From: Candidatus Babeliales bacterium
GTDB taxonomy: Bacteria > Babelota > Babeliae > Babelales > JANWKD01
Assembly (NCBI GenBank): GCA_963762115.1
Contig: CAVXJH010000006.1
Location: 96,001 to 160,000 of the forward strand
DNA length: 64,000 nucleotides
Direction of reading: 5' to 3'
Numbering within the stretch: the stretch's first letter is position 1; the number at the start of each line of letters is the position of its first letter. The position numbers and the translations under genes are program-made. This document shows, piece by piece, positions 221 through 60,009 of the stretch. Below the pieces are notes generated by a model that was not told where the DNA came from, did not search any database, and saw nothing but the letters and a program-made list of their open reading frames with translations.

Positions 221-2821
221 TTAATTACTCAAATTAGAACCTACAGCAACCGTTGCGCCTACAATTTGAACATTTCCAATACCACCATTATAATTTCCGC
301 CTGCATTTCTTACTGCATAATTATAAAGGATTGCAGCAGCACTATTCAGATCAAAGCCAACACCGCCATTATATTCTGCAATACAATATGCTGCATTAAC
401 AACTTCTGTACCAACGCTACACAAAAATCCTTGATCTGTATTTCTATTTGCTTTGCAATAGTTTAAATCAGCTGTTGTACTAGCCCCTCCTGAGAAATTA
501 AATCCTATATCATTATTAAAAGAATTACATCTATCTAATGATAGTTCTGAACTTAAAGAACTAAAACCAGCACTTCCAGCAGCCCCTGTTGTACAAATAA
601 CACTACAATTGGTGCATGAATTATTTGTCGCTACAATTTCAAAGCCAGCACTAATGCCACCAGATGAATTTACATTATTTACGTGACAATCAAAATATTC
701 TGCGCAAGTAGAGTCAATAAACGAAAGAAAAGCGATTGCTTGTGAAGGTCCCGTTATATTATTAACAAAACAACCTCTGCAGACACTATTAGCTGAAGAA
801 ATATTGAACCCATCTACTATCGTGGTACCGGATAAATTTACTGCTGAACAATTAGTTAAAATAGTATCGCCACCAGCTATAAGGAAGCCAACTAATGATG
901 TCGATGCTCCTGCTTTTGTTAATCCATTCACCACACAATTATAAAATTCATTATTTGCCGCGTTCGCTTGGAACCCAACAGTATTCAACGTTGATCCAGC
1001 ACCAGAAAGATTCATTACAACACAATCTGAGAATATATTGCTGCCAGGAGTTGTTCCGTCACTGAATATTCCTGTAACACCACTCGTAGCGGTGATATTT
1101 TTTATAACGCATGATTTAAACGTGTTATAAAAACCAGCAAGGTGATTTATGCCTATAGAAGCGAATCCTGTTGCGTTATTAACCACACATGAATCAAGGA
1201 GAGAATTTTGTAAATTAGCAAATCTAAAACCTGAATTTAACAAACTCATATTGGTGCATGCTACATGATCAAAGACACATTCAAGAGCTGTTCCCACAAC
1301 ATCAACGCCCACTCCTACACATTGATTAATAGTTGACGCTGATACTTTAGTCGCAACAGGGCTTGTTAACGATATACCATATGATGAGCCATTGTTAATG
1401 ATAACATCACTTAATATTCCTTGATTACAACTGGTTAAGGTAATACCAACATGAAGTGAATTTTCAATGGTCAAATTGTTAATTAAAAGGCTAATATCAT
1501 TAGTGTTTGAAACACCACGCAAACAATTTTGTACATACACATTAAGTATTGCAGTACCAATACTTGACGTTGCCGTAATAGCGCTTACTGCAGGACAATT
1601 AGTAAATGAAATGTTATTAATTTCAGTATTAGTATTTGAGGTTAACACAATACCATTATTAGAGTTGTTGATATTACCATTTTTAATAGTACGATTCGTA
1701 CCTGTTAACACAAAAATACCACCGGTTGAAACGGCATGAGAATTAAGATCTAAAACAACATTATTTGCTGTTATGGTAAATGATCCAACAATATCATTAC
1801 TAAGACAATAATAACCCGGTTGAGTAATATTCGTACCAGCAGTTAACGGTGTTACAACGCATGCTGAAGCAAGTGCATTAATTGCAGTAAATGTTCCATT
1901 AAAACCAGCAAGAATCGTCCATGTTTGTTGAAATTCATTCGTTATATTGGTACAACATGCATTAAGTGCAGTAAATGTTCCATTAAAACCATTCGTTATA
2001 ATCGTTGTGGTACTATTATTACTAATTGCCGTGGTAATGGTTGTGCTTAAACTAGCAAGAATTGTCCATGTCGCTTGAAAATCATTTGAAATATTAGTAC
2101 AGCATGCATTGAGTGCAGTAAATGTTCCTTGCTGGCTTATTACTATTTCACTTACAAGAGCCGTCAACGTTGATACGGTTGACTCTAATAATGAAACAGT
2201 TGCTACAATTGAAGTTGCACTTTGAACTAAAGCATTCACAACCACTGTCAATGTATTGGTTGCTTCTTCAATTAAAATAGCAGCTGTATTAATCGTTGAG
2301 AGACTTTGATTAATATCAAAAAGTATTGAAAATGTTTGCGCAAAATCAGCTTGTATTTGTGCACAGCAAGTAGTTAATTGCGTACTTAAAGCATTTAATA
2401 AAGCTCTAATGCCTGATAAATCACAGGTTGCAGGACCCGCTACACCATTGTGTGGATTGCCTTGACGAGGTGCCTTAGTTGATTCTCCTAAAAGCTCATT
2501 ATATCCTTCCACCAATAAAGGATATGCTTCCAATAAATCATTGACACATAATAAATCTTTTTTTTCTTCCAATCGATCGCAACAACGGATTAATGCCTGC
2601 AATGAAATGTCATCTGGATTTACTGTTACTTCATTTTTAATTTTTTTCTCAACAAGACCGACAATAAATGCTTGTACTACTTCATCAACCACAATCTCTT
2701 CTTGCCCATCAACAAGAATAATAGCGGGACATTCATTTACTTCTTTATAATCCGTACACGCTGATTGATTAAAAAAACCAACAACAAAAAATAACAACAA
2801 AATTTTTGATACTTGCTTCAT
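221..2821 (-). CDS. Secreted fibre-like protein: signal peptide, Cys-Cys coiled-coil repeats, long right-handed parallel beta-helix
   Basis: N-terminal MKQVSKILLLFFVVGFF; repeats 'GTFTALNACCTNITNEF'; 'ITQPGYYCLSNDI..ITANNVVLDLN' typical of a beta-helix start, followed by ~500 aa of N/S/T/G/C-rich beta-rung repeats. Confidence 0.75.
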   Translation of the reverse strand: MKQVSKILLLFFVVGFFNQSACTDYKEVNECPAIILVDGQEEIVVDEVVQAFIVGLVEKKIKNEVTVNPDDISLQALIRCCDRLEEKKDLLCVNDLLEAYPLLVEGYNELLGESTKAPRQGNPHNGVAGPATCDLSGIRALLNALSTQLTTCCAQIQADFAQTFSILFDINQSLSTINTAAILIEEATNTLTVVVNALVQSATSIVATVSLLESTVSTLTALVSEIVISQQGTFTALNACCTNISNDFQATWTILASLSTTITTAISNNSTTTIITNGFNGTFTALNACCTNITNEFQQTWTILAGFNGTFTAINALASACVVTPLTAGTNITQPGYYCLSNDIVGSFTITANNVVLDLNSHAVSTGGIFVLTGTNRTIKNGNINNSNNGIVLTSNTNTEINNISFTNCPAVSAITATSSIGTAILNVYVQNCLRGVSNTNDISLLINNLTIENSLHVGITLTSCNQGILSDVIINNGSSYGISLTSPVATKVSASTINQCVGVGVDVVGTALECVFDHVACTNMSLLNSGFRFANLQNSLLDSCVVNNATGFASIGINHLAGFYNTFKSCVIKNITATSGVTGIFSDGTTPGSNIFSDCVVMNLSGAGSTLNTVGFQANAANNEFYNCVVNGLTKAGASTSLVGFLIAGGDTILTNCSAVNLSGTTIVDGFNISSANSVCRGCFVNNITGPSQAIAFLSFIDSTCAEYFDCHVNNVNSSGGISAGFEIVATNNSCTNCSVICTTGAAGSAGFSSLSSELSLDRCNSFNNDIGFNFSGGASTTADLNYCKANRNTDQGFLCSVGTEVVNAAYCIAEYNGGVGFDLNSAAAILYNYAVRNAGGNYNGGIGNVQIVGATVAVGSNLSN
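1880..2130 (-). repeat. Imperfect intragenic direct repeats encoding (N/Q)GTFTALNACC / WTILA units
   Basis: tgcagtaaatgttccattaaaacca occurs at ~1883 and ~1967; agcaagaatYgtccatgt occurs at ~1907 and ~2054. Confidence 0.75.
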
Positions 2822-7823: not shown

Positions 7824-8276
7824 TTATAAAGATTTTTGATAGGTTTCTAGCGCTAATTTTTGTATGTCACGCACGTGTATTGATGGCCTTTTTAAGGCAA
7901 TAAATTCTAAGGCTTCCTCTATCGATTTTCCTTGTTTGATAAAATATGCTGCAACAAGTGTTGGCGCCCGACTATGACCATTTTGACAATGTACATAAAT
8001 TTTTTTCTTCATTTTTACAAATTTTTCAAGAGAATAAACCCCAAAATTCAACTGTTCTTGGGTAGGCGCTAAATCATTTTTTACAGGAAGCCAAACATAA
8101 AAATTAACACCAAAGGGTTCATCTACGCTCTCACCTTCGACGGATATATCAACTTCGATATTTTGAGATAGTAACAATGCAGCAAAATGTTCTTTGCAAC
8201 ATTTATTTGTACCAATATATATTCCATCAGAGATGTAATTATATTCTAATATTTTAATTGGGCTATGTTGATCCAT
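7824..8276 (-). CDS. Dual-specificity/PTP-family phosphatase
   Basis: CX5R active-site loop '[10 protein letters not shown]'; overlaps the fcl 3' end. Confidence 0.88.
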
Positions 8277-9237
8277 ATTTAATTCCTTTATCTGCAGGCA
8301 TTACTTCATAATTTTTTATTGTTGTATACCATTCTAAAGTTCTTCGTATGCCATCTTGCAAAGAAATTTTTGCTTGCCAACCTAAAGCATGAAGTTTATC
8401 AACATTAAGTAATTTTTGTGGTGTTCCATCAGGTTTTGTTGTATCAAAAACAAGCTTTCCCTTAAAACCAACAATTTCTTTAATCAGATAAGCAAGATCA
8501 GCGATTGAAATATCTTGACCAACACCAATATTAATTGGTTCAGAGGATGAATACTGTTGCATAAGAAATACAGCAGCGTCAGCCAAATCATCAACAAACA
8601 GAAATTCACGTAATGCTTTGCCCGTTCCCCAAATAGTTACTTGCTCGGCATCCGTACTCCATGCATGATGCATTTTTGCCAGTAAAGCAGGAAGAACGTG
8701 TGAAGTTTCCAAATCAAAATTATCACCAGGTCCATATAAATTTGTTGGCATGCAAGAAATAAAATCGGTGCCATATTGCTTGTTATATGACTGACATAAA
8801 TTAATACCGGCAATCTTTGCAATTGCATAGGGTTCATTTGTTTTTTCCAAAGAACCGGTTAATAAATACTCTTCACAAATCGGTTGTAAACAATTACGAG
8901 GGTAAATGCACGAAGAACCTAAAAAAAGTAATTTTTTTACACCAAAACGATAAGCCGCGTGAATGATATTAGCGCTAATCATAAGATTTTCATAAATAAA
9001 TTGTGCAGGAAAATCACTATTTGCTTTTATACCACCAACTTTTGCCGCTGCCAAAAAAACATATTCAGGACGATGCTCAGAAAAAAAAGTTTGTACTGCA
9101 TTTTGATCGCACAAATTAAGTTCATCAACAGTTTTATAGAGTAAATTATGATACCCATCTGTTTGCAACTTTCTCATTAATGCTGAACCAACAAGCCCAG
9201 TATGCCCAGCGATATATATTCTCGCATTTTTATTCAT
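8263..9237 (-). CDS. fcl: GDP-L-fucose synthase
   Basis: '[13 protein letters not shown]', 'AAAKVGGI', 'LGSSCIYP', 'YAIAK', 'PTNLYGP'; ATGA overlap with gmd gives start 9237. Confidence 0.95.
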
Positions 9238-10346
9238 AAATATTCCCATTGATATTGGTGAGATTGATGTAAAGGTGCATTTGATACTTTTCCCGATGCT
9301 CGTAATTCTGCTGCAACAAGCTCACAATCATGATCAACCATTAAAGCAACCAATCCATCAAAATCCATTTTAGGTTGCCAACCTAATTGTTGAAAAGCTT
9401 TGCTTGCATCACCAATTAAAAGATCAACTTCTGTCGGTCTAAAATAATGTTCATCAATCACCACAATTTCTTTTTTTGTTGCACTATCAATGCCACGTTC
9501 ATGAACACCGGTACCTTGCCAGATCACCTTAATACCAACACGCGCAAAAGCTTTTTGAACAAACTCTCGAACCGTATACGTTTTACCCGTTGCAATAACA
9601 AAATCTTCCGCCTTATCTTGTTGCAACATCAGCCACATCGCTTCAACATAATCTTTTGCATAACCCCAATCACGTTTTGCATCTAAATTACCCAAATATA
9701 CAGTATCTTGAATCCCATATTTTATACGAGCAACAGCACGAGTAACTTTTCTGGTGACAAATGTTTCACCGCGCATTGGTGATTCATGATTAAAAAGAAT
9801 CCCATTGCAAGCATACATATCATATGCTTCACGATAATTTACGGTGATCCAATAGGCATATAATTTTGCAACGCCGTAGGGCGAACGAGGATAAAAGGGG
9901 GTTTTTTCAGTTTGAGGAATTTCATTACTATTGCCATAAAGTTCACTCGTGGAAGCTTGATAGAATCGTGTTTTTACCGTTAATCCGAGTAATCGAATTG
10001 CTTCTAAAATACGCAAAGTTCCTAAAGCATCAGCATTTGCTGTGTATTCTGGCGTTTCAAATGAAACACGAACATGACTTTGTGCCGCTAGATTATAAAT
10101 TTCATCAGGTTGAATTTCTTGAATGATTCTGATCAAGTTGGTTGAATCGGTTACATCACCATAATGTAAAATAAAATTATGATTATCATACTCATGTGAA
10201 TCTTGGTAAATATGATCAATACGTGAAGTATTAAACGAAGAAGATCGTCGCTTTAAACCATGAACTTGATAACCCTTATGCAATAAAAATTCAGATAAAT
10301 AAGCGCCATCTTGACCGGTAACACCGGTTATTAATGCTTTCTTCAT
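9234..10346 (-). CDS. gmd: GDP-mannose 4,6-dehydratase
   Basis: '[14 protein letters not shown]', 'NLAAQSHV', 'QASTSELYG', 'SPYGVAK', '[15 protein letters not shown]'. Confidence 0.97.
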
Positions 10347-10363
10347 AACTCTCTTTCCAATTT

Positions 10364-11401
10364 TTAAAGATACTGATCAAGATTTTTTTTCTTTAGCTCT
10401 TGTACTATTAATTTAACTTTTTCTGCTTCAGATCGTTTCACAATTAAGAGTGCATCAGGTGTTTCAACAACACATACATCATCAACACCAAGTAATGCAA
10501 CCATTTTTCCCGATGAAGATGAAATCAAATTGTTGTGTGCATCAATCTCAATAACATTTCCCCGTGCATTTTTTGATTGTGCTTCTTGTTGTAATGCCAA
10601 AAATATTTCTAAATTACCAACGTCAGACCATTCAAAATCAACAGGAACAACATAAATTTTATCGCTTTTTTCCATAAGAGCATGATCAATCGAAATTGAT
10701 GGCAATGACAGGTAATCATTTTTATCGCCCGAAAGAATATAGTTTTGCATGCCGGCATAAAGCTCTGGTGCATATTTTTGGTACTCACGCAAAAAAACAG
10801 AAACACGGCCACAAAAAATGCCGATATTCCAAAGCATTGATTGCATCGAACAATAGATTTGTGCAACTTCAAGAGATGGTTTTTCATGAAATTTTAAAAC
10901 TGCTCCAACATGAGCATCTTGAATATCTTTTTTATATTCAATATAACCATAACCTGTTGCAGGATAACGCGGCTTAACGCCCAATAACGTAATTACATCA
11001 TGCTTTGCGTTATATTCTAATGCAGCTGAAATACCTGCAACAAATTTTTTTGTTTCAGGTATATAAGGATCGGCAGGAAGAAATACAACAACAGCATTGG
11101 GGTTTTTTTGTGCAAGCAACAGGCAACTCAAAAGAATTGCCGGTGCTGTGTTGCGAGAAGCAGGCTCAATAAATAAAGAATGTATATGATTGCCAACAAG
11201 AGCTATAATTGCTTTCTCTTGCTGCTTGTTAGTAACTATAAAACGATTATGCCGCTCAATCAAACCATCAAGACGATCAAGCGAATTTTCCAACAAAGAA
11301 CGATTATTCACAAAAGGTAACAATTGCTTTGGTTTGCTTTCGCGACTCAGCGGCCAAAGACGTTCACCCTTACCTCCTGCCAAAATAACTGCATAGGTCA
11401 T
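10364..11401 (-). CDS. manC: Mannose-1-phosphate guanylyltransferase (no PMI domain)
   Basis: '[21 protein letters not shown]', '[10 protein letters not shown]', 'TGYGYI', 'FHEKP', 'WSDVG'. Confidence 0.93.
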
Positions 11402-12132
11402 GATTTTTTTAACTTTTTATTTTGTTCGCAAAATAAACGATCATACAATAAAATAAAATACATTTTTGCTGTTTCACGCATTATTTTTGTCGATAATTTT
11501 GATTCACCTCTATCACGATTACGCGCTTCAATGGGTACTTCGTATACTGTTGCACCACGTTGTAAAAAACGATACAAAGATTCTAAATTAAAACAAAAAC
11601 CTTGTGACTTGAGATTTTTTATAGATGATTCACTAAGAATGGCAACATTATAAAGCCGGAAAGCACCCATACAATCGTAAGGCATACCAAGGCCATTTTT
11701 AATCATATTATGCCAAAAATTAGTAAAAAATAATCTAAATTTTCCCCAACCATGCATAACACCTTTTCCTGCCCAGCGCGAACCGATAATGATGTCATAT
11801 TTATCCTTCTTTTCAAGCATTAAAGGTATATATTTCGGATCATGCGTGCCATCAGCATCCATGGTTATAAGATAATTATAATGATTTTTATGCGCATATT
11901 TAAATGCTTCTAAGTGGGCAGTACCCAACCCAAGTTTGCCAGGACGATGCATAACCTTGACTGTTTGATCATGACGAGCTAATTCATCAAGAATTTTCCC
12001 GGTATCATCGGGTGAATTATCATCACAAAACAATATATCAAACGGAATCCCAAGGTTTTTCAGTTGAATATACAAACGATCTACATTTGCACGTTCATTA
12101 TAGGTTGGAACAAAAACTAAAATCTTATTCAT
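11398..12132 (-). CDS. GT2 polyprenol-phosphate mannosyltransferase-like (Dpm1-like)
   Basis: 'VPTYNE', 'DDNSPDDT', 'KLGLGTA', 'MDADGTH', 'IGSR', 'GESKL'. Confidence 0.88.
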   Translation of the reverse strand: MNKILVFVPTYNERANVDRLYIQLKNLGIPFDILFCDDNSPDDTGKILDELARHDQTVKVMHRPGKLGLGTAHLEAFKYAHKNHYNYLITMDADGTHDPKYIPLMLEKKDKYDIIIGSRWAGKGVMHGWGKFRLFFTNFWHNMIKNGLGMPYDCMGAFRLYNVAILSESSIKNLKSQGFCFNLESLYRFLQRGATVYEVPIEARNRDRGESKLSTKIMRETAKMYFILLYDRLFCEQNKKLKKS

Positions 12133-12232
12133 AGTACATTTCTTTCAGCTTAATGCATTATTGAATCTACGGTGATTTGTACAATAAAATAGACTAACAG
12201 TTCTTGCTTTTTTTCCTAGCCCATCATGAATA

Positions 12233-14407
12233 TTAAAGTTCCTGAACGCCACCACCTTTGCATGCTAACTGATCAATGATTAACGTTAGTTCAGCAACTG
12301 TTGCTAATCGTTCTCTTGTTATTGGCATTAACATTGAAGAATCTTTTAAGGAGCCAAAAAATTGATTCAATAAATATTCATGACCTTTATCAGCCGTTGT
12401 TACTTTTTCATTAAATGATGCTGGTAATCCATGCCCTTGCAACGTCAAATAATCATCCATCACAATTGCTTTGCTATCAAAATAAAGTTCCATTCGCTCT
12501 TTACCAAGACCGGCATGACCAAGCGATGTATATAATAACGTACACACAGAACCATCTGAGAAACTAATTTGAGCACTTATATTATCACTTGAAAGTATAT
12601 TTTCACTGTTTGGATTTAATGATTCAACAGAAACTGAAACCGGTGTTGCATCAGTTAAAAAACAAAACAGATCAAAAATATGGCATGCTTCACCAATAAT
12701 TCGGCCTGCACCAACATCAGTTTGAACCCAATGTTCTTTTGAAATATAACCAGCATTCATGCGATAATGCACCATCAAAGGAGAATTCCTTGGGATAATT
12801 GCGTCTTTTATTTTTCGCATAAATGGTGCAAATGAACGGTTGTAATCAACGCATAAAGGCATTGATGGATTTAAAGTTAAAAAATTATTCAATTTTTCCA
12901 ATTGCGCAAAATCAGTAACCATCGGCTTTTCAACAAAAACAGCTTTGCCATGAGTAAGAGCGGTTAAAATCTGATCACAATGATATTTATGCGGTGAAGC
13001 AATCACCACAACATCCACAAGATCCTTATCAAATAATTCAGTGTCATTCACTAATGATGTTGCACAACCATATAATCGTGAAACATTAATTGAATTTGAA
13101 ACATCTGAATCAACGATTGCATGAATTTTAGCGTTTTTTATTTTTGCAACGATAGGCATTAATTTTACTTTTGCAAAACCACCCGCACCAACAAAACCAA
13201 CGCGCAATTGAGCTGCTGTTGCTGGTTTAAAAGCAAGATTCTTTTGTTCTGATTTTTTTTGCGCATCTTCTTGTGCTGCCACAACGACCAGATCATCTTT
13301 TGGCACATATGCCAAAATAATTCCCAATCCTTGTCTATTTTTGAGTTGCTCATAAGCATCTGCTGCTTGTTCAACAGGAAGAGCTTGTGAAACAAGTGAA
13401 TTAATATCAATTTGATTTTTTTCAATCAACTCAAGAAATGCTTGCATATTTCTATTTTCTGTCCAACGCACATACGCAAATGGATAATCATGACCTTGTT
13501 GCTCATAAGAGCTATCATAACGACCAGGACCATATGAACATGAAATCAGAAAATCAATTTCTTTTTGATAAAAAGGGGCACGTTCAAGACCTAATCCAAC
13601 ATCACCGACAAGGACAACTTTACCTTTTTTACGCGTGATTTCCATAGCTTGTTGCACGAGTGAATCACTCTTTGATGCAGCAGTAATAAGCGTGCAATCA
13701 ACGCCATAATGCTTGGTAAAAAAGGCACAATCTTTTATAAGAGTTGGTGATGTTGCATTGAATACAGCATCAGCACCTAATTTTTGTGCTTGTGCAAGAC
13801 GCTCATCAACAACATCAATACCAATAACTTTGCAACCTGCTCGTTTTGCTAATTGCACGGTAATTTGTCCAAGCAATCCCAGACCCTGAACGCAAACTGT
13901 TTCACCAAGTTGCAGTTGTGCACGGCGTATTCCTTGCAAGGCAATTGCACCAATGGTGGTGATACTTGCCTGTTTTAAGTAGGCTGCATCTGAAACTTTC
14001 ACTATTAAATTTTCTGGCACGCACACATAATCAGCATGGCTTGCATAACCTGCGCCAGCACAGGCAACAAAATCTCCCGCTCGAAAATTTTTCACCTTTT
14101 TACCAACGGCAATAACTTGCCCGGAACAAGAATAACCCAGCGCTTGCACAGTACCACTCAAGCGACCTTTTATCAGTGCTTTGGTTCCTTCAATGCCATT
14201 CATAGCAATTGATTCTAAAACTTTTGTTATTTTTTGAGGAATATTGGTCAAAAAAACATTTTTTGATGCATTTGATAACGTTGCAGATTCTGTACCAGAA
14301 CTTATAAAAGAATAATGTACAGAAACTAATACTAAATCATCATCCAAAAGAGGTTCACAAACATCTTTAATTGCAACGGTATTTTTTTCTAAAAAAAGTT
14401 GACGCAT
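12233..14407 (-). CDS. Bi-domain oxidoreductase (MDR/Zn-ADH-like + Gfo/Idh/MocA)
   Basis: 'ISSGTE', 'LGYS', 'GLGLLG', 'SYGPGRYD', 'RWTENRNM' N-domain; 'GFVGAGGF', 'VFVEKP', 'GEACH' C-domain. Confidence 0.9.
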   Translation of the reverse strand: MRQLFLEKNTVAIKDVCEPLLDDDLVLVSVHYSFISSGTESATLSNASKNVFLTNIPQKITKVLESIAMNGIEGTKALIKGRLSGTVQALGYSCSGQVIAVGKKVKNFRAGDFVACAGAGYASHADYVCVPENLIVKVSDAAYLKQASITTIGAIALQGIRRAQLQLGETVCVQGLGLLGQITVQLAKRAGCKVIGIDVVDERLAQAQKLGADAVFNATSPTLIKDCAFFTKHYGVDCTLITAASKSDSLVQQAMEITRKKGKVVLVGDVGLGLERAPFYQKEIDFLISCSYGPGRYDSSYEQQGHDYPFAYVRWTENRNMQAFLELIEKNQIDINSLVSQALPVEQAADAYEQLKNRQGLGIILAYVPKDDLVVVAAQEDAQKKSEQKNLAFKPATAAQLRVGFVGAGGFAKVKLMPIVAKIKNAKIHAIVDSDVSNSINVSRLYGCATSLVNDTELFDKDLVDVVVIASPHKYHCDQILTALTHGKAVFVEKPMVTDFAQLEKLNNFLTLNPSMPLCVDYNRSFAPFMRKIKDAIIPRNSPLMVHYRMNAGYISKEHWVQTDVGAGRIIGEACHIFDLFCFLTDATPVSVSVESLNPNSENILSSDNISAQISFSDGSVCTLLYTSLGHAGLGKERMELYFDSKAIVMDDYLTLQGHGLPASFNEKVTTADKGHEYLLNQFFGSLKDSSMLMPITRERLATVAELTLIIDQLACKGGGVQEL

Positions 14408-15762
14408 TAAAAGAACTCCTTATCAAAAATTGTTTTATGAACTGATCCTGCTTTATATGGCTCAAATGGTGTCATACTTTGCAAACTATTTGCAGGCCAG
14501 AATAATGCTTCTTGTTCAGTTGTTTCTGCATGTGGTTTATACGTCAATCCACAAAAATCAAGAATTTTTTTGCTTCGTGTTGCACTATGATCAATATCTT
14601 TAAATTGCTTATGGGGAACAAGACAAATAATAATATCAGCACAATCAATTCCCTCTTGCAAAGAAACTACCGCATCATTAAATAACGATTCAAGCGTTGT
14701 TTGTGCAACATTCGGTTCAGTCACCAACAAATTAATATCAGAATATTTTTGTAATTTTTGTGCAATCGCTAAAGCAGGTGATTCGCGCATATCATCAACA
14801 TCAGCCTTGTAGGTTAACCCTAACACTAACACGGTAGGAATACCTTCATTACGCTCTTGCCACTCATGAATCCATGAACGAGTCAACGAAACAACTTGTA
14901 ATGGCTTGGCATCGTTTACCGCACGTGCTGTTTGTAATAATGATGATTGCTCAGGAAATGTTTCAACAAGGAACCAAGGGTCAACGGCAATACAATGACC
15001 ACCAACACCGCATGAGGGATTGAGAATATTCACACGAGGATGTTTATTTGCTAATGCAATCACTTCAAATGGATCTAAGCGAGTCGCATATGCCATTGCA
15101 GCAACTTGATTTGCAAAAGCAATAGCAACATCTCGTGAACTATTTTCGACAAGTTTAACCATTTCAGCAGTAGTTGCATTGGTTAAATACAATTGTCCTT
15201 TTACGAATTGCTTATAAAATAACTTTGCACGGCTTACCGATTCAGGATTTATGCCACCAATAATGCGCGGATTATGCACCAATTCGTAGAAAATTTTTCC
15301 TGGCAAAACACGCTCTGGACAATGGGCAACAAAAAAATCTTCTCCAGCTTTCAAGCCCGTTCTTGCCTCAAGAATTACTGCACACTCATTGGTTAACCCA
15401 ACAGGAACGGTAGATTCAACAATTACGACATCATCTTTTTTTAATACGTGCGCAATCGCCTCTGTTGCTGCCATCACATAAGAAATATCTGCTTTTTTTT
15501 CTTCTTTAAACGGTGTTGGAACCGCAATCAAAAAACAATCTGCTTGCTCAAGAAGCGTTGTTGCACGAAAAGCACCTGAAGCAATTAATGGTTGAAGGCG
15601 TTCAATACTTTCAGGCTCCTGAATCACCGGATCATAATTATTAATACGTTCAACACGTTGTGTATCAATATCATAACCAACAACCTCAAATCCATTTTCA
15701 GCAGCTACAATTGCCGTTGGAAGACCTATATAGCCAAGTCCCATTATGCATATTTTTTGCAT
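14407..15762 (-). CDS. wecC: UDP-N-acetyl-D-mannosamine dehydrogenase (nucleotide-sugar dehydrogenase)
   Basis: 'GLGYIGLP', 'AVPTP', 'ESTVP', 'CPERVLPG', 'GVGGHCIAVDP', 'DMRESP'; adjacent to wecB. Confidence 0.9.
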   Translation of the reverse strand: MQKICIMGLGYIGLPTAIVAAENGFEVVGYDIDTQRVERINNYDPVIQEPESIERLQPLIASGAFRATTLLEQADCFLIAVPTPFKEEKKADISYVMAATEAIAHVLKKDDVVIVESTVPVGLTNECAVILEARTGLKAGEDFFVAHCPERVLPGKIFYELVHNPRIIGGINPESVSRAKLFYKQFVKGQLYLTNATTAEMVKLVENSSRDVAIAFANQVAAMAYATRLDPFEVIALANKHPRVNILNPSCGVGGHCIAVDPWFLVETFPEQSSLLQTARAVNDAKPLQVVSLTRSWIHEWQERNEGIPTVLVLGLTYKADVDDMRESPALAIAQKLQKYSDINLLVTEPNVAQTTLESLFNDAVVSLQEGIDCADIIICLVPHKQFKDIDHSATRSKKILDFCGLTYKPHAETTEQEALFWPANSLQSMTPFEPYKAGSVHKTIFDKEFF

Positions 15763-15791
15763 CGTACATTTCCTTTTTTAAAAAAATAAGC

Positions 15792-16970
15792 TCATCTATT
15801 TGCTGTATAAAATTTCTGAACAGCATCATAGTGAGGAGCATAATTGCGCTTTGTTTGAACAATGTGGGCAATCATATCGGCAGCATAACCAGTGCCATAA
15901 ATTGAAGAAGCTTTAGCTTGGATAAGCGGAACATCATTCATTAATTTGTACATTTCTTTTTGAATTGCTTCTTGATTGGTGCCAACTAAGGTGGCCAAAC
16001 CAGTCCATAAACCTTCAACACGCTCTGTTTTATCACGTAATACCAAAACGGGTTTACCCAAACTGATTGCTTCTTCTTGAATGCCCCCTGAATCAGTTGC
16101 AATCCAATCAGCATTCAATAAAAGATAAACAAGTTCTTTATAAAGTAACGGTCTTGATAGAAATAAATTAGGAATTTTAGCGACACCAACTTTATCAACA
16201 GCTTCAAGAACGTGAGGATTTGGATGATAAGGATAAAAGAAAAAAATGTCAGGATTAGCAAGTGCAAATTCTTTAATCGCCGTTAAGATGCGCACAATGC
16301 CGCCATTAAATGATTCACGACGATGCACCGTTAAGAGCACTATTTTTTTACCCTGCATCTTACATTCTTGCACTTTTTGAGTAATTTCTTCATCAATTAT
16401 TACTTCTTTTAAGGCAATTTTTTCTTTAATGATGCGTAAAGTATCAACGACCGTATTACCCGTACAATAAATAGATTCTCTATCAACACCTTCAGCAAGC
16501 AAATTGCCAACATTAAGAGGAGTTGGTGCAAAATGATAATTGGCTACCATTGAAATAAATCGACGATTCATCTCTTCCGGGAATGGACTTTTGATATCAT
16601 TTGTTCGGAGGCCCGCTTCAACGTGACCGATGGGAATATCCAAATAAAAAGCAGCCATTGCAGCCGCCATACTTGAGGTTGTATCACCTTGAACTAATAC
16701 CAAACAGGGATTAACTTTATTATAAAATGCTTTTAATTTTTGCAAGGCACTTTCAGTAATATGAAAAAGATCCTGATTAGGTTGCATAATATCAAGTTGA
16801 TAATCAGGAATAATACCAAATAAATCATACACTTCTTGTAACAAATATGAGTGTTGATCAGTTGAACAAAGTACAATCGAAATCTGCATTTTTTTGAATG
16901 CAAGATACAGAGGAATCATCTTGATCCCTTCTGGTCGTGTACCAACAATGAGAACAATAGGACTTGTCAT
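15792..16970 (-). CDS. wecB: UDP-N-acetylglucosamine 2-epimerase (non-hydrolysing)
   Basis: 'GTRPEGIKM', 'QGDTT', 'HVEAGLR', 'PFPEEMNR', 'HRRES', 'TDSGGIQEEA'. Confidence 0.96.
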   Translation of the reverse strand: MTSPIVLIVGTRPEGIKMIPLYLAFKKMQISIVLCSTDQHSYLLQEVYDLFGIIPDYQLDIMQPNQDLFHITESALQKLKAFYNKVNPCLVLVQGDTTSSMAAAMAAFYLDIPIGHVEAGLRTNDIKSPFPEEMNRRFISMVANYHFAPTPLNVGNLLAEGVDRESIYCTGNTVVDTLRIIKEKIALKEVIIDEEITQKVQECKMQGKKIVLLTVHRRESFNGGIVRILTAIKEFALANPDIFFFYPYHPNPHVLEAVDKVGVAKIPNLFLSRPLLYKELVYLLLNADWIATDSGGIQEEAISLGKPVLVLRDKTERVEGLWTGLATLVGTNQEAIQKEMYKLMNDVPLIQAKASSIYGTGYAADMIAHIVQTKRNYAPHYDAVQKFYTANR

Positions 16971-32129: not shown

Positions 32130-33203
32130 ATGCAAAAACTTAAAATTGGTGTTTTGATGGGGGGAAAATCAATTGAACGTGAAGTATCATTCAATTCTGG
32201 CCGCACAGTATGCGATCATCTTGATACAGAGCGTTATGAAATTATTCCTCTCTTCCAAACTATTGTTGGAAAACTTTTTATATTGCCATGGCGTTTTCTT
32301 CATCGCGGTAAAATTAGTGATTTTGAACATCGCTTATCAACAGAAGCTGAATCCCTATCATGGGATTCATTAAAAAATAAAATAGATTTTATCTTTAATG
32401 CTATGAATGGTCGCTATGGCGAAGATGGATCATTACAAGGCCTTCTTGAAATCCTTGGCATCCCTTATCTTGGCTCAAAGGTATTCACCAGTGCTTTGGG
32501 CATGGATAAATTCCTACAAAAAGATTTTTTACAACTTCAAGGCATTATAACGCCCAAAGATGTTCGCGTATATAAAGAAGATATTATAACAATTGAGCGA
32601 GATCTTTCTGCTTTATTAACGCAATTAGAAAAAGCTCATATCACATTTCCCTGCATAGTAAAACCTAGAAAAGAGGGTTCAAGCTTGGGAATTTCAGTCG
32701 TTCATCATCAAACAGATTTATTTCAAGCTATAAAAAAAGCATCTGAAATCGATATTCATCAAAAACAAGATGTTTTAATCGAAGAAAGAATAGATGGCAT
32801 GGAATTCACCTGCATTATCATTATAGATCAAACAGGATTACCTCTAGCATTGCCACCAACTGAAATCGTTAAAGAAGAGACAAGTGATCTTTTTGACTAT
32901 GCACAAAAATATATGCCAGGACGATCAATAAAATTTACTCCTGCCCGTTGTACCACAGAACAACAAGAACTCATTCAGAATACCTGTATTAAAGTAATGA
33001 AGGTGCTTGGTATGCAAACTATAGGAAGAATCGATGGATTTTTAACCACCAATAATGAAGTGATTATTATTGATCCAAATACACTTTCTGGTATGGCCCC
33101 ATCTTCATTTATTTTTTGCCAAGCAGCACAATTAAACATGAATCATGCAACAATAATTAATCATTTAATTGAGACAGAAATTAAGAATTATCATATTTTT
33201 TAA
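32130..33203 (+). CDS. ddl: D-alanine--D-alanine ligase family protein (paralogue 1)
   Basis: 'GGKSIEREVS', 'GRYGEDG', 'MDK', 'KP..EGSSLG', 'DYAQKY', 'RIDGF'. Confidence 0.85.
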   Translation: MQKLKIGVLMGGKSIEREVSFNSGRTVCDHLDTERYEIIPLFQTIVGKLFILPWRFLHRGKISDFEHRLSTEAESLSWDSLKNKIDFIFNAMNGRYGEDGSLQGLLEILGIPYLGSKVFTSALGMDKFLQKDFLQLQGIITPKDVRVYKEDIITIERDLSALLTQLEKAHITFPCIVKPRKEGSSLGISVVHHQTDLFQAIKKASEIDIHQKQDVLIEERIDGMEFTCIIIIDQTGLPLALPPTEIVKEETSDLFDYAQKYMPGRSIKFTPARCTTEQQELIQNTCIKVMKVLGMQTIGRIDGFLTTNNEVIIIDPNTLSGMAPSSFIFCQAAQLNMNHATIINHLIETEIKNYHIF

Positions 33204-33214
33204 GGAGCAATAGA

Positions 33215-38933: not shown

Positions 38934-40844
38934 CTATGCTTGAATATCAAGGTTTGAAATCATAGAAGACTGTACCGTTGTAGCATTTGGTGGAACACCA
39001 CCAGAATAACTAAATGAAACAGCAGTTACAGAAAAAGGACCTGAATAAGCAACGGTATAATTTTTATAAATAAGATTACCTCCAGAAAATGGCGGTCCTG
39101 ATGATCCGTTGCTAATTGCAGTATTACCCGCAACTAATGTATTACTACTGCCTGATAATACCGATCCTCCACTCGTAAAGACGATATTACTATCAAAAAT
39201 ACCTGATTGATTATTTTTCAAGATAGAATTATTGCTAATTTCATTAAAATTAGCACCATTTGCACCATCAATAAAAATTCCAGCACCAAAAACAACATTT
39301 GTTGCTGGTGTTCTTGGATTGTTACCTTCAGCAACACAATCAACAATTACTGATGAAGATTCGCTTGGTCCAAGCCCAAACCCATAAGCTGTCGGTCCAA
39401 CATTAAATGATCCAGTACAATTGGAAAATACATTTCCTTGTCCATTATCCGCTAGAAACCCATATGAACAAATCGAGATACCATTATTAGCATTTGCGAC
39501 ACATGATTCTATAAGATTGCCTATACCACTAACGCTATGTAATCCATAAACACAAATACCAACATTAAGATTCATAGAAGAGCGAGCTACTCGACAATAA
39601 TTACAACCTATAAGCGATATTCCTGCCGAATTTACTGCTCCCGATCCGTTTCTATCAACCAAACAGCTTTCAATTATCACATTTTCACAATTTACCAAAG
39701 AAATACCGCCGAGAGCAAGACCCGCTGTTGCACATAATGAAATGTTACATTGTTTAATTATACTTTCAGCAATGGGGGAACCACCAAAAGCAAAGAAATT
39801 AATACCCGATTCTGCTGCCTGAGTTATCGTTAAATTCATAATTTTTAGATTGGAAGCACCACCAAAAACTCTAATACCATCAAAAGCTACATTATTAATT
39901 TCACCATTTTTAATAGTAATATTTTCAAGGCCGGAATTAATTTGAATTCCTACATTAGCAACTCCCGAACCTAAAATTGATCTTCCACATAAATTAAAGG
40001 TGACATCACTTGAATTAATTATGAAAATGGAAGCTGCATTGGAAGTTATATTTTCAGTTAATACATAATTTCCCGGTGAACTTATCGTAAATGATCCACC
40101 CAATGCATCAATCAATCCTTGTGTTATAGAAATATTATGACAACCTGTTGCAAGACTGTTGAGCACAGAAAAGGTTCCATTAAATTCATTGGTGATATTA
40201 GCACAACACTCTGTTAACGTATTTTTAACATCAAAAATTGCCGTAAACGTGCCATTAAATTCATTGGTGATATTAGCGCAACATTCCGTTATTGTATTTT
40301 TAATATCTATAATTACCGTAAATTCATTTATAATAGAACCAATTCTTACTTGTATTTGACGCAATAACGCCTCAATTATTGAAAGATTACATGATGAACC
40401 AGGTCCAACAATATTTGATGATACACCTTGACGGGGCGCTCTTGTTTGCATTTGTTGAAATTCGGCAATCAAATCAGGAAAAGCTTTTTTAAGATCTTCA
40501 ACAGAAAAATCATTACTATTTTTACATACCTGTTCATAACATCTTAATAATCCATTAGAAAGACGATTTTCAATGCCTTTTTCTAATGCATTGTTAACCA
40601 AAGAAATAAGAAACGGCTTAAAATGAGGATTATCTATCGTTATATAACCAAGATCAGTATTATTTTCTTCTAAGGCAGACTCTATCATGTTGTAATATAA
40701 TTGAGCACTTTGAAGTTTAGATTTTTCTTTCATATTTTTTGCTATTGAATTTTTTTTAAGCCCTTTTTCTCTGGATTTAGCATCAAGCAAAAAATAAACC
40801 GATTGCAAACTTATTAGTATGAACAAAAAACGAAATAGCTTCAT
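38934..40844 (-). CDS. Secreted Cys-Cys coiled-coil / beta-helix protein (paralogue of 221-2821)
   Basis: Signal peptide; 'APRQG..GP..CNLS', 2x 'ECCANITNEFNGTF', 'ISSPGNYVLTENI', beta-helix rungs; start at ATG 40844 after AAGGA. Confidence 0.75.
   Translation of the reverse strand: MKLFRFLFILISLQSVYFLLDAKSREKGLKKNSIAKNMKEKSKLQSAQLYYNMIESALEENNTDLGYITIDNPHFKPFLISLVNNALEKGIENRLSNGLLRCYEQVCKNSNDFSVEDLKKAFPDLIAEFQQMQTRAPRQGVSSNIVGPGSSCNLSIIEALLRQIQVRIGSIINEFTVIIDIKNTITECCANITNEFNGTFTAIFDVKNTLTECCANITNEFNGTFSVLNSLATGCHNISITQGLIDALGGSFTISSPGNYVLTENITSNAASIFIINSSDVTFNLCGRSILGSGVANVGIQINSGLENITIKNGEINNVAFDGIRVFGGASNLKIMNLTITQAAESGINFFAFGGSPIAESIIKQCNISLCATAGLALGGISLVNCENVIIESCLVDRNGSGAVNSAGISLIGCNYCRVARSSMNLNVGICVYGLHSVSGIGNLIESCVANANNGISICSYGFLADNGQGNVFSNCTGSFNVGPTAYGFGLGPSESSSVIVDCVAEGNNPRTPATNVVFGAGIFIDGANGANFNEISNNSILKNNQSGIFDSNIVFTSGGSVLSGSSNTLVAGNTAISNGSSGPPFSGGNLIYKNYTVAYSGPFSVTAVSFSYSGGVPPNATTVQSSMISNLDIQA
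40177..40283 (-). repeat. 75-bp (25-codon) tandem repeat in the beta-helix gene
   Basis: ccattaaattcattggtgatattagcRcaaca at 40177 and 40252. Confidence 0.8.
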
Positions 40845-40876: not shown

Positions 40877-42625
40877 TTAATAACTCTTATCAAAAATTAT
40901 ATTTCCCATTACTATTGTTTTGCTTTTATCCAAAATCTCTTCAGATGAAAATTTAATCAAACTCGTGTCATAAATTCCTGCATGAGAATTATAAATAATA
41001 CTATTGTTTTTAATAATATTGGCATAAGCACCTGAAATACCATCGATAAAAATACCAACACCGGCACAGGTAGCATTATTTGATTCTGCACGAGAATCTA
41101 TTATCGATGATATTATTTCTGTTTTTGCAAAATTAAAACCATAGGCATTTTGTCCATTATTATTAGATGCAGAACAGTTGATAAATAAATTTTGTTTTCC
41201 ACATTCTGTTGAAAAACCTAAAGCAAGTCCTTCAGAATTATTATTATTTGCCTGACATGCTTGTACAATAATATTGCTACTCTCAAACATTTGTAATCCA
41301 AATACCGTAATAGCTGCTGTATTAAAATTCATAAAAGAATTATTAATAGAACAATTAGTACATCGATTGAGTAATACACCTCCAGAAAAGGATGCTTTGA
41401 TAAAACCATTGCGATTAAAAAAACAATTTTTTATAACAATCGAATCACAATGCGTAAGCGTTAACCCACCCATTGCACCGTTTATATCAGTAGCACATGA
41501 ACTAATATGACAATTTTTCAATAAACATTCTCGAACACAACCATCATCACCATCAAAACCATTCAATATAATTCCTGATTTTTGACAATTATTAACAGAA
41601 ATATCTTTGATAGTTATATGAGAACTATTGGGTAAAATTTTTATGCCACAATCACTAAAATTATCAATATGACCATTCTTTATGGTAATATTCATATGCC
41701 CTGGATTTATTTGAATCCCTCTAGATGACCCATTTTCGCCGGATATTTTTCGCCCATTAAGATCAAAACAAATATCATTTGCCTCGATAATAAAAGAAGT
41801 GTTTTCTTTTATTACAATATTTTCAGCTAATAAAAAATTACCTGAATGATTAAAAACTAAACTATCAGCATAATTATCAACCAAACTTTGTGTTATAACT
41901 CTATAAGGCGATGATTCAGGAGACTCTATAATTGCTCTCGGCACTGCACAACAAGCAGTAACCTCTGCCAATATTGATGATAAAGAACTTTCTATCGAAG
42001 TACAACAGGTAGCAATTTGCTGTCCCAAAGATGAACAACAAATGGTCAATTGTGTTGAAAGATCAGAAATAGCACTAAGAATGGCACTTTCTGCGGCAGC
42101 AATCTGCGCCATAATTTTATATAACAATGAAAAAGTACTATTAAAATCCATTTGCATAATAACACAACATTCAATTACTTCAGCCTCTATCCTGCTCAAC
42201 AGTTGCCCAACAAGGACAAGATTGCAAGGAGTTGAACAACTTTTATGTTCAAGCAATTGATTTTGATGTTTCTGTAATCTTCCCGCTAAATAGGCAAACA
42301 AATCTGGCATTGCTTCTTTAAGATCCTTAACACAAACTTCATTTTTTCCTGCTATACATTGCGCATAACAATTTAACAAGCCTTGCGATATAACAAGTGA
42401 CAATCCTTCTTTCTGTGCATCCTCAACTGCATCAATCATAAATTTGATAAGAAGTTCATTATCGAGAATAACATATAAAGGCGCATCAGATTTTTCAACA
42501 AACGGCACCGATTGCGTCTGAGTTAATGATAAAAAATCAGATGTTTGTGCGGCATATAAAAAAGATACTTTGCTCTGTAAAATAAAAATTATCAAAAAAA
42601 ATTTAAAAATGGCTATAATTCTCAT
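40877..42625 (-). CDS. Secreted Cys-Cys coiled-coil / beta-helix protein (third paralogue)
   Basis: Signal ending LYA; 'IECC','TICC','ATCC','TACC'; 'SGNFLLAENI..ICFDLNG', 'NITIKNG'. Confidence 0.75.
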   Translation of the reverse strand: MRIIAIFKFFLIIFILQSKVSFLYAAQTSDFLSLTQTQSVPFVEKSDAPLYVILDNELLIKFMIDAVEDAQKEGLSLVISQGLLNCYAQCIAGKNEVCVKDLKEAMPDLFAYLAGRLQKHQNQLLEHKSCSTPCNLVLVGQLLSRIEAEVIECCVIMQMDFNSTFSLLYKIMAQIAAAESAILSAISDLSTQLTICCSSLGQQIATCCTSIESSLSSILAEVTACCAVPRAIIESPESSPYRVITQSLVDNYADSLVFNHSGNFLLAENIVIKENTSFIIEANDICFDLNGRKISGENGSSRGIQINPGHMNITIKNGHIDNFSDCGIKILPNSSHITIKDISVNNCQKSGIILNGFDGDDGCVRECLLKNCHISSCATDINGAMGGLTLTHCDSIVIKNCFFNRNGFIKASFSGGVLLNRCTNCSINNSFMNFNTAAITVFGLQMFESSNIIVQACQANNNNSEGLALGFSTECGKQNLFINCSASNNNGQNAYGFNFAKTEIISSIIDSRAESNNATCAGVGIFIDGISGAYANIIKNNSIIYNSHAGIYDTSLIKFSSEEILDKSKTIVMGNIIFDKSY

Positions 42626-44349: not shown

Positions 44350-45957
44350 ATGAAAAAACTACTTAATCTATCCCTACTTGTGGTAGGAATGTCGCTTGCG
44401 GCAAATATCATTGCTGCTGACAGCGATGATAGTTCAAACAACTCAACAAGAAAAGGTGGCGATGCAACCGGCCATACATTCTTCTGGGTTCGTCCTCAAT
44501 TTCAAGATCCTATGCCAGAAAAAATTTCTTTATGGCGTAATGATCGCGCAATGGCTCGTGATTGTGGTTGGAATGGAGCATTCCAAGTAGTACCTTTCGG
44601 TGGTCGCACTACAAAAAAATCGGCAAACGGCTTAGCTCGTTATTTTATGTTTGGTAATAAAACAGAATTAATTGTTGCTGGTGCTACTGCTACCGACGTA
44701 AACACTGATCAAGGTGTTGGTGTCGATGTTGGTGCTTTTAATTTTAATATTGAAACTCTCAATCCTACAGTTTTCAGTCAACCATTCAAAAGCACTCTAT
44801 CATTCAGTCCACGTCAATCAACTGTTGGTGCTGGTTTTGATTATATTCAATATTTTGGTTGGAATGATTGTTGTGAGCGCAAATGGTGGGGAGAAATTTC
44901 TTTCCCTGTTGTGCGTGTGCGCAATGATATGCGCTTAACAGAAACAGTAATAACACCTGCAGGAACTTTAGTTACCGGAGCTGCTGCAAACATGACCCAA
45001 GCATTCACTGGTCAATTTCCTTTTGTGAACACGATTAATGGAGCTTCTGTTGCCAGTCCTGTATGGCAATATGGCAAAATTGATGGACGCAGAAGTAAAA
45101 CAGGCGTTGCCGATGTTGAAATTAAAATAGGTTATGATTATGTTCGTAATGATTGCTCATATCTTTATACTTATGTTGGAGTTTTAGCACCTACAGGAAC
45201 AAAACCAAAAGCTGAATATGTATTTGAACCAATAATTGGTGAAAATAGACATGTTGGTGTTTTAACTGGTGGTTCTGGTGGATTCCAAATTTGGTCTGGC
45301 TGTGAAAAAACTTTGATGCTTGATGTTGATATGGCTTTCCGTTATTTAATTAGAAATACACAATTGCGCTCATTTGATCTTTATAACAGACCTTGGAGCC
45401 GCTATATGCCAGTATTTGCTAATCCCGCAGCTGCAGCTCTAATTGAACTTAGTGCCGGCATCAATCAATTTACTCAAAAACTAAGAGTTCATCCAGGATT
45501 CCAATTCAGCGTTAATTCAGCTTTAGTTTACAACAGCGAATGTGGCTTAGAAGCTGAAGTTGGTTATGGTGCTTGGGGTCGCCAAGGTGAAAGAGTTAGA
45601 TTAGCATCTCCATGGGTAGTTGGTCCTGCAATTGCCAATACAAGTCCTTTTGCTGTAGCAGATACAATAAATAGAGCTTCACTAATTGGTGCTAGTTTTG
45701 GTGGTGCAGCAGTTGATATTTTAACTCCTCCAGCAGGCACGACAACTAATTCACTTTTAATTCAAGAAACAGATTTGAATTTAGGTTCAGCGGCTTGTCC
45801 AGCGGCCTTAACTCAAACTATTTATGGCACCGTTGGTTATAATTGGAACTGGTGTTGGCCAATATTTGTAGGCGTGGGTGGCTCTTATGAATTCAGCAGA
45901 ATTAATACTGCCGTTAATCGTTGGACTGTTTGGGGCAAATTTGGTGTCTCAATATAA
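44350..45957 (+). CDS. Cys-rich putative outer-membrane beta-barrel protein
   Basis: AAGGAG RBS; signal peptide; alternating aromatic/Gly strands (GAGFDYIQYF, KIGYDY, EAEVGYGAW, YGTVGYNW); terminal strand 'WTVWGKFGVSI'. Confidence 0.7.
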   Translation: MKKLLNLSLLVVGMSLAANIIAADSDDSSNNSTRKGGDATGHTFFWVRPQFQDPMPEKISLWRNDRAMARDCGWNGAFQVVPFGGRTTKKSANGLARYFMFGNKTELIVAGATATDVNTDQGVGVDVGAFNFNIETLNPTVFSQPFKSTLSFSPRQSTVGAGFDYIQYFGWNDCCERKWWGEISFPVVRVRNDMRLTETVITPAGTLVTGAAANMTQAFTGQFPFVNTINGASVASPVWQYGKIDGRRSKTGVADVEIKIGYDYVRNDCSYLYTYVGVLAPTGTKPKAEYVFEPIIGENRHVGVLTGGSGGFQIWSGCEKTLMLDVDMAFRYLIRNTQLRSFDLYNRPWSRYMPVFANPAAAALIELSAGINQFTQKLRVHPGFQFSVNSALVYNSECGLEAEVGYGAWGRQGERVRLASPWVVGPAIANTSPFAVADTINRASLIGASFGGAAVDILTPPAGTTTNSLLIQETDLNLGSAACPAALTQTIYGTVGYNWNWCWPIFVGVGGSYEFSRINTAVNRWTVWGKFGVSI

Positions 45958-59616: not shown

Positions 59617-60009
59617 ATGAATATCGCAAAAAATAAATTTTTGTTCTTATGTATAACGTTAATAACTCTAGCAAATACACTAGAATGTACCGTTAGAGAA
59701 TTTAAAGGCACCGATGCTCAATTTGATGCCATCCTCAAAGAAGGTAAGCCTGTTGTGGTTAAATGTTACCAAACCTGGTGCTCTGCATGCAAACATTATG
59801 AAGATAGTTTTAAGTCTATTTCAAATCAATTTCCACATGTTACTTTTTTAGCAGTCGATTGTGCAAAAAATCCATCAATTGAATCACGCTTTGGATTTCA
59901 TGGTTATCCAACAACTATTTTTTTTGATTCAACCGGCAATAAAAAAAACCAAAGAACAAATGTTTTAACGGCAGAAGAATTACGCAAAGAAGTTGAAAAA
60001 TTACAATAA
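59617..60009 (+). CDS. Exported thioredoxin-fold protein (WCSAC)
   Basis: Signal-like N-terminus; 'WCSAC', 'GYPT'. Confidence 0.85.
   Translation: MNIAKNKFLFLCITLITLANTLECTVREFKGTDAQFDAILKEGKPVVVKCYQTWCSACKHYEDSFKSISNQFPHVTFLAVDCAKNPSIESRFGFHGYPTTIFFDSTGNKKNQRTNVLTAEELRKEVEKLQ

Follow-up and report, generated by a model that had tools for sequence, protein, structure and literature searches.

The window analysed here, a stretch of 64,000 nucleotides from a Candidatus Babeliales bacterium (assembly GCA_963762115.1, contig CAVXJH010000006.1, positions 96,001 to 160,000 of the forward strand), contains three paralogous genes on its minus strand, termed A (221..2821), B (38934..40844) and C (40877..42625), which probably encode Sec-exported, likely trimeric surface fibres with a disulfide-locked stalk and a host-binding tip. 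The genome holding the window (1.53 Mb, 7 contigs, 95% complete) belongs to the Dependentiae, a widespread phylum of obligate protist parasites, and the cultured members of the phylum are described as intracellular parasites of protists (PMC4776705, PMC6561590). Adhesion to the host is the role that we consider probable for the fibres. Following the proposed mechanism, the proteins would be exported by Sec, a helical N-terminal domain (N-domain) would be cut off between the first two residues of a [KR]APR motif, inter-chain disulfide rings would lock the cysteine-pair helical stalk of a trimer, and the protist would be bound by an exchangeable tip, which genes A, B and C encode as a beta-helix.

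A sequence-only reading of this DNA had assigned to the three open reading frames a signal peptide, a helical N-terminal region with a conserved L..C, a variable number of cysteine-cysteine (CC) coiled-coil repeats and a beta-helix, and most of this architecture was confirmed. Judged by hydropathy, all three proteins start with basic residues and a hydrophobic stretch in a signal-peptide-like manner and have no membrane-length hydrophobic segment past the N-terminus. The L..C element is invariant in 11 of 11 paralogues (L33, C36), and the beta-helix head lies above the Pfam cut-off in genes A, B and C. Gene A encodes 866 amino acids (aa), namely a signal peptide, the N-domain as a candidate pro-domain (aa 42-108, 2498..2698; placed by alignment, its fold by homology to the gene B model), a linker with the motif KAPR (aa 116-119, 2465..2476) as a candidate processing site between [KR] and A or an N-terminal signal, a stalk of about 186 aa that starts at CDL (aa 133) and carries three CC pairs at aa 152, 240 and 289 (1868..2425), and a head of 548 aa (224..1867; Pfam Beta_helix, E 1.6e-07), all on the minus strand. 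For the gene B protein, 636 aa counted from the ATG at 40844, an AlphaFold2 monomer model was built from a 96-row alignment (mean pLDDT, the per-residue model confidence, 80.6). It shows a compact and confident N-domain at aa 67-133 (40446..40646; pLDDT above 90 for aa 71-130), a low-confidence linker at aa 134-152 opened by RAPR at aa 135-138 (40431..40442), a stalk helix at aa 155-232 with CC at 188 and 213 (40143..40391) and a right-handed beta-helix at aa 238-577 (head 38937..40142; pLDDT about 90-98 for aa 241-510), again on the minus strand throughout. Gene C (582 aa; CC at 153, 196, 207 and 225) has HKS..PCNL in place of RAPR, and its head stops about 50 aa sooner than that of gene B. 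A C-terminal autotransporter barrel, whose absence the sequence-only reading had already noted, was detected neither by Pfam in the three proteins nor in the gene B model. A lipoprotein reading of Cys22 in gene A was rejected, since the paralogues have no such cysteine.

The three genes belong to a family that is real and apparently undescribed. A genome-wide count of paralogues, as proposed beforehand, yielded 11 N-domain members. Seven of them, 582-2005 aa long and with 2-19 CC, carry a beta-helix head; the other four, each about 290 aa long, are headless, Cys-tailed and arranged in tandem. The genome further has a 119-aa gene with the N-domain only, as well as three beta-helix genes that encode a head alone; a pair of these immediately follows the gene of the 2005-aa member. 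A fourth local paralogue of 770 aa (G000:C6:93687-95999; L004:7687-9999) is found immediately to the left of the window; it forms a tandem with gene A and is 56% identical to it over the head region. The N-domain profile matches 14 of 261 Dependentiae genomes from three families, with 1-13 matches each, and 101 clusters among 1.84 billion proteins; the stalk, or its starting motif, reaches 21 of the 261 genomes, several weakly, and is sometimes joined to another N-domain or to none. The N-domain had no match in Pfam or NCBIfam (for the latter, nothing above cut-off with 12 proteins), and a sequence-level comparison of its profile with PDB sequences, as distinct from a fold search, gave a best E of 0.57. 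Among viral contigs, a search limited to close relatives returned 9 pattern matches, of which 0 were confirmed. No description of the family was found in literature searches or in the texts of PMC4776705, PMC6561590 and PMC12172432, a scope that leaves aside supplements and subscription papers. The four headless paralogues, here and in a relative, are flanked by genes for sulfotransferases that begin in a signal-peptide-like manner (L001:4184-5011, L037:9096-9914 and 14673-16424).

The stalk is marked by CC pairs, up to 19 in this genome and over 40 in relatives. Across 1092 CC sites the consensus reads L(-10), T/I(-7), L(-3), C-C, I(+4), F(+8), T(+11), W/F(+12), L(+15), and the most frequent spacings between pairs (25, 11, 36, 18, 43, 72, 54 and 29 residues) are all sums of 7 and 11. 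A 3.6-residue phase is kept by 83% of 885 spacings and by 75% of 441 spacings counted as distinct per protein, against 45% expected; these counts include relatives, which are not independent. In the window, the spacings of gene B (25) and gene C (43, 11, 18) are in phase. Since spacings keep the helical phase, one cysteine of each pair would face the core and its neighbour would lie at the flank. Several observations weigh against this picture: in the window proteins on their own, the number of CC pairs is of marginal significance when compared with shuffles of the same composition (P = 0.054, 0.12 and 0.039), the stalk spacings of gene A (88, 49) are out of helical phase, and the stalk helix of gene B reaches a pLDDT of just 55-82 in the monomer model. 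In addition, the C80-C81 pair of gene A sits in the N-domain, not in the stalk. The giant paralogues with 18 and 19 CC, however, were matched by 0 of 2000 shuffles, and it is because of this test and the family-wide phase, not because of the window proteins alone, that we regard the pattern as real. Thus the CC repeats that were seen from the sequence alone stand as a property of the family and are marginal as a property of the three window proteins, while the modular coiled-coil stalk of variable length agrees with both the phase and the helical model.

That the stalk forms a homo-oligomeric coiled coil is strongly suggested by this pattern, and a trimer is its likely state. Inter-chain rings formed by the CC pairs, oxidised by VKOR and exported thioredoxins, appear fairly probable. 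In an engineered trimer, adjacent Cys pairs at g/a positions are described to close such inter-chain disulfide rings (PMC4476739), and this engineered cysteine zipper shares with the family the adjacent pairs that are repeated in phase along a coiled coil; the Babeliales stalk differs in being natural, in its many pairs and in its mixed 7/11-residue repeat, and its rings are predicted only. Disulfide-bearing coiled-coil repeats are otherwise known from tetrabrachion and cartilage matrix proteins (PMC13580157). As to the disulfide source, a VKOR gene 6 kb left of the window, together with two thioredoxin-fold proteins with signal-peptide-like starts and CxxC (window 59617-60009 and 60034-60702), could serve, to judge from their sequences. 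A point against it is that a DsbA-type Thioredoxin_4 match is lacking in the genome.

Where the phase breaks, the motif T-x-T-[VC]-D-L-S-[GP]-V-F is commoner (63 of 143 versus 92 of 605 distinct segments), and the conserved C-D-L that opens the stalk is its first copy. The motif resembles strand-to-helix necks or beta-layers, and such elements are known from homotrimeric fibres (PMC4786415). The shortest stalks have fewer than 100 aa and the longest about 1370 aa, and stalk length changes by DNA repeats: gene B carries a tandem 75-nt (25-aa) repeat at 40170-40319 that is 85% identical, and gene A a 95-nt repeat pair, 147 nt apart and 80% identical. Among sequencing runs, none of RNA was listed as containing the family, and in two DNA runs, which gave short contigs only, no repeat-number variant was seen. 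Two other readings of the stalk were dropped. N-G-T repeats look structural rather than N-glycosylated, because just 41% of 1381 F-x-x-T-[FWY] repeats have N at the position; in 5 of 6 proteins, sequons are slightly more frequent than in shuffles. Stalk matches to Baculo_PEP_C, tape-measure and similar Pfam or PHROG families were mostly below cut-off or low-complexity and were not used.

The head of gene B aligns with solved folds at Z 31-36.5 (root-mean-square deviation, rmsd, 2.3-3.1; about 290-330 residues). It is equally like monomeric enzymes (AlgE4, Z 36.5; NosD, Z 32.4) and trimeric tailspikes (Z 31), which speaks against reading a fibre from the fold, and it also matches the adhesin PfbA, the overall range being Z 29-36.5. 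Since enzymes, NosD, tailspikes and PfbA match about equally, the fold is silent on function. The nearest solved folds being tailspike depolymerases, lyases and epimerases, one could imagine the heads as tailspike-like glycan-degrading enzymes on stalks that cut polysaccharide of the host surface or vacuole. However, the conserved head columns of the 96-row alignment are Gly, Asn, Cys and aliphatic ladders, and apart from a structural cap Asp this alignment of divergent heads has no conserved Asp, Glu, Lys, Arg or His column, paralogue-specific sites being possible. The heads are also charge-poor, with about 5% D+E and 3% K+R+H versus 11% and 13% genome-wide; the head of gene C is an exception with 8-9% for each. 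Because of the lack of a conserved catalytic-type column and the low charge, binding by the head appears likelier than catalysis at the sequence level. Unrelated, non-enzyme-like heads on the same stalk point the same way, and we consider enzymatic heads unlikely. The contrary outcome named by the sequence-only reading, a monomeric lyase devoid of a coiled coil, was not obtained: the stalk is modelled as helical, and the heads of the family share no catalytic signature.

Heads are swapped across the family. Those of the homologues are mostly beta-helices, with some beta-helices combined with a WD40 propeller as an insert, tandem beta-helices, an unassigned domain or no head at all, and one head type corresponds to the phage virion-protein domain PHROG1645 (E 5.9e-44); the window proteins themselves had no PHROG match. 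The best viral Foldseek matches of the gene B model are from Klosneuvirus (E 7e-14) and Hyperionvirus (E 1e-11), a structural similarity hinting at head exchange with giant viruses in shared hosts. A Barrevirus beta-helix is also among the best viral structural matches, and all three viruses are giant and protist-infecting. Head-only genes, composed of a signal peptide and a beta-helix or PHROG1645, are repeatedly found next to stalk genes, in runs of as many as four (L003, L043, L049, L058, L099, L103).

Between N-domain and stalk, the sequence-only reading had taken PRQG as conserved and as a possible maturation site. This did not hold, as PRQG occurs in 2 of 105 family proteins and [KR]APR in 60 of 105; the fuller conserved form of the latter is [KR]-A-P-R-P. 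The motif ends a linker of variable length, occurs two or three times in some proteins and, as [KR]APRP, is retained in three of four family members without the N-domain. Among 388 signal-peptide-like open reading frames of the genome, 8 contain [KR]APR, compared to 0.7 in shuffles, and this enrichment is confined to the fibre proteins. A general T-[RK]-[ASG] processing motif of secreted proteins was discarded (66 of 388 versus 70 shuffled, not enriched). A furin-like cut after the second Arg is disfavoured as well: proteases tend not to cleave before Pro, and Pro follows in 71% of 98 aligned motifs, a count that left out 52 proteins without anchor. Cleavage between [KR] and A would instead leave an A-P-R-P end. 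A candidate for this step is a C11 (clostripain-family) protease, which is present in 257 of 261 Dependentiae genomes and is near-core in these reduced genomes. The local copy (G000:C6:184850-186367) begins in a signal-peptide-like manner and has R-A shortly before the catalytic domain. Fragipain, a C11 protease, is described to remove pro-domains at Arg-Ala (PMC8406203). Against cleavage as a family-wide step stand the 45 of 105 family proteins without exact [KR]APR (some of them fragments), the lack of RAPR in gene C, and the near-universal occurrence of C11, which therefore does not single out fibre substrates. That the N-domain acts as a chaperone which the C11 protease then cleaves off is about as likely as not, and [KR]APRP may just as well stay uncleaved and serve as a signal for export or docking.

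RAPRP is found, too, behind the signal peptide of giant fibres of 2677-4435 aa that are unrelated to the family and have tail-fibre-like repeats and a C1q end (L067:678-8711, L068:3600-7859, L069:436-11652, L106:3234-16541); their profile similarity is weak (probability 17%). These giant fibres also carry beta-helix-like blocks and adjoin CC-family genes in two relatives. In the present genome, the 3' end of the 2677-aa fibre gene is fused to a high-GC, contaminant-like start with RNA polymerase fragments (G000:C7:1-4900), so that this contig is likely a chimeric assembly at its start.

How proteins that lack a barrel of their own might reach the surface is suggested by an operon elsewhere in the genome, where the 119-aa N-domain remnant has as neighbours two barrel genes, metG and the gene of a secreted protein of 1369 aa. 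One of these barrels (G000:C3:476297-478129) was modelled from a 9-row alignment (pLDDT 76.6). The model is 12-stranded and resembles the COG4313 structure 4rl8 (Z 24.4, rmsd 2.5, 260 aligned) and FapF 5o65 (Z 22.9, rmsd 2.6, 256 aligned), with autotransporter barrels at Z 19-20; large domains are inserted in it, and an N-terminal coiled coil is absent. A 12-stranded barrel also holds the three helices of trimeric autotransporters. The giant secreted protein gene (L005:8657-12766, i.e. G000:C3:480657-484766; also L099, L100 and L112-L151) encodes 1300-1650 aa without Pfam, NCBIfam or PHROG match and is possibly a split autotransporter passenger, going by its sequence. Downstream of the barrel, the typical gene encodes no head and has V-I-x-W-L-K-x-I at its end. 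With a profile of this tail, 46 of 261 genomes were matched, 44 being from a single family, and the match lies on the same strand and at most 6 kb behind the barrel in 20 of 20 non-seed genomes with a barrel at E <= 1e-40, a count that omits 8 seed genomes and 18 without a barrel at this threshold. The same tail also ends five proteins with the family motif and a CC stalk, of which one is encoded immediately behind the barrel; these five therefore tie the window family to the barrel-linked headless group. Furthermore, in 9 of the 14 N-domain genomes (11 judged), the core barrel has a member or remnant no more than about 6.5 kb away. Other fibre-like proteins can also occupy the position behind the barrel (L136:6821-8669, L137:1-5800), one of them Gly/Ala-rich with RAPR; one protein behind the barrel carries what we take to be YadA-head-like repeats.

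Several observations weigh against the barrel as the fibre exporter. The barrel family occurs in 149 of 261 genomes at E <= 1e-40, and in 40 loci sampled across families from about 184 matches, the giant gene stands at most 400 bp upstream in 36, whereas a RAPR or CC-rich gene stands directly downstream in just 9; among the other genes in these loci, 12 of 149, including those 9, qualify as RAPR or CC-rich, and the sampled loci of families f4, f6, f13, f17 and f18 have no such downstream gene. In 2 of the 14 N-domain genomes the core barrel is far from all members, and in the present genome the gene behind it is merely the 119-aa remnant. Fibre clusters lie only modestly close to barrels of any kind: 3 of 6 have one at a distance of at most 5 kb (P = 0.015), and with the remnant left out the figure is 2 of 5 (P = 0.08). 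COG4313-type barrels may moreover be small-molecule channels, and the genome has two secretin genes; two gspD copies have been reported (PMC4776705). The window itself encodes an outer-membrane barrel (44350..45957, plus strand), one of 10 in-genome paralogues of the fibre-locus barrel family by hidden Markov model (HMM), at 1.7 kb from genes B and C, which is a candidate link only. Overall, export or holding of the fibre in trans by the 12-stranded barrel is a tentative proposal, with type II secretion as the alternative route.

Type II secretion, or outer-membrane vesicles, could also release the fibres without anchoring them, so that they would act on or coat the host compartment and RAPR cleavage would free them. 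The two secretin genes, the lack of any anchor motif found in the proteins and a folded, disulfide-locked trimer that would be too big for a 12-stranded barrel are in line with release, as are the vesicles reported in Chromulinavorax (PMC6561590). However, a variable stalk length best suits a tethered tip, and the synteny with the barrel operon is conserved, which makes release improbable, the least probable of the readings weighed here. Somewhat less improbable, though still unlikely, is that the proteins stay in the envelope as a disulfide-cross-linked periplasmic scaffold that hardens the infectious particle, with the headless member as periplasmic partner of the barrel, similar to the FapF coiled coil. 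Cysteine-rich envelope proteins harden chlamydial elementary bodies in a comparable way, the proteins have no export domain, four members are headless and Cys-tailed, and the conserved ancestral form is headless and barrel-linked; dark periplasmic material has been described in Chromulinavorax particles (PMC6561590). On the other hand, a stalk of about 1370 aa, which would extend roughly 200 nm at 0.15 nm per residue, is too long for the periplasm of 350-400 nm cells, the heads vary like adhesin tips, and the family is patchy and lineage-expanded, with 1-13 matches in its 14 genomes. Surface fibres thus remain the reading that we prefer.

Such fibres work like two known systems, the Bdellovibrio MAT fibres and the trimeric autotransporter adhesins, yet fail membership of both. 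With MAT fibres, as described in PMC10769870, they share a large paralogue set, a signal peptide, a conserved N-terminal domain, a variable shaft, swapped C-terminal tips of phage origin and the absence of an attached barrel. In contrast, the MAT N-domain is described as beta-rich and about 130 aa long (PMC10769870), whereas the Babeliales N-domain is helical, has about 67 aa and precedes [KR]APRP; the Babeliales shaft consists of a Cys-Cys coiled coil, and Pfam scans of the Babeliales fibre proteins found no S74 domain. The type Vc adhesins YadA, BadA and SadA share a modular coiled-coil stalk with non-heptad periods, neck-like strand-to-helix motifs and length variation through repeats. However, the Babeliales polarity is reversed, with the head at the C-terminus, and Cys-Cys pairs are repeated; the YadA anchor had no Pfam match in the three proteins, and PF03895 was absent from the 95% complete genome, with a positive E. 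coli control. From classical (type Va) autotransporters the fibres have the beta-helix passenger feature and lack the same-chain C-terminal 12-stranded barrel, the one PF03797 match of the genome being another gene. Two-partner secretion (type Vb) does not fit either, as there is no TPS-domain Pfam match, the N-domain is helical and the linked barrel is 12-stranded; for an Omp85-type TpsB, the search gave just a sub-cut-off ShlB match in an 822-aa frame. The Pseudomonas Fap system (PMC5557850) offers a parallel for export, since the operon barrel has the FapF/COG4313 12-stranded fold (the window barrel being an HMM paralogue), and a separate barrel with an exported cysteine protease would serve Sec-exported fibre subunits. 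It differs in that the Babeliales substrate is a coiled-coil fibre, not an amyloid, and in that the barrel has large insertions and no N-terminal coiled coil; a FapD-type C39 protease (PF03412) was absent from the genome, where controls were positive in 7 of 14. Finally, phage tailspikes and giant-virus beta-helix proteins share the helical neck that leads into a right-handed beta-helix, whereas the Babeliales proteins have signal peptides, a chromosomal housekeeping context and no catalytic signature.

Other genes of the window were noted as well. Immediately downstream of genes B and C, and on their strand, 36518-38503 encodes a secreted-looking PLA2_B lysophospholipase. It belongs to a eukaryote-type family and is a candidate host-membrane effector. 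A sugar-nucleotide cluster (8263-16970 and 46766-47782) comprises a GDP-mannose dehydratase, a fucose-synthase-like epimerase, a mannose-1-phosphate transferase, a glycosyltransferase, a UDP-sugar dehydrogenase and an epimerase. An ankyrin-repeat protein (22638-24998), a dual-specificity phosphatase (7824-8276) and two tandem D-Ala-D-Ala ligase genes (32130-34336) are also present.

Taken together, the family offers a concrete, lineage-expanded set of candidate adhesins with swappable tips for host recognition in Dependentiae, a phylum whose host range, in the words of one account, "remains to be defined" (PMC12172432). Its stalk is a candidate natural multi-ring cysteine zipper, otherwise met as an engineered device, and the barrel and the protease are candidates for serving barrel-less fibres, whose surface partner is given as unidentified even in the Bdellovibrio account (PMC10769870). 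A bolder and rather doubtful extension is that the operon, with its giant protein, FapF-fold barrel and headless CC adaptor, displays many unrelated fibre types in trans, the APRP end exposed by C11 after [KR] routing them, the zippers locking them and head-only proteins perhaps docking on headless stalks. If this were true, Dependentiae would possess a mix-and-match kit for host recognition, in which a trimeric autotransporter is split into a shared barrel and exchangeable passengers of reversed polarity.

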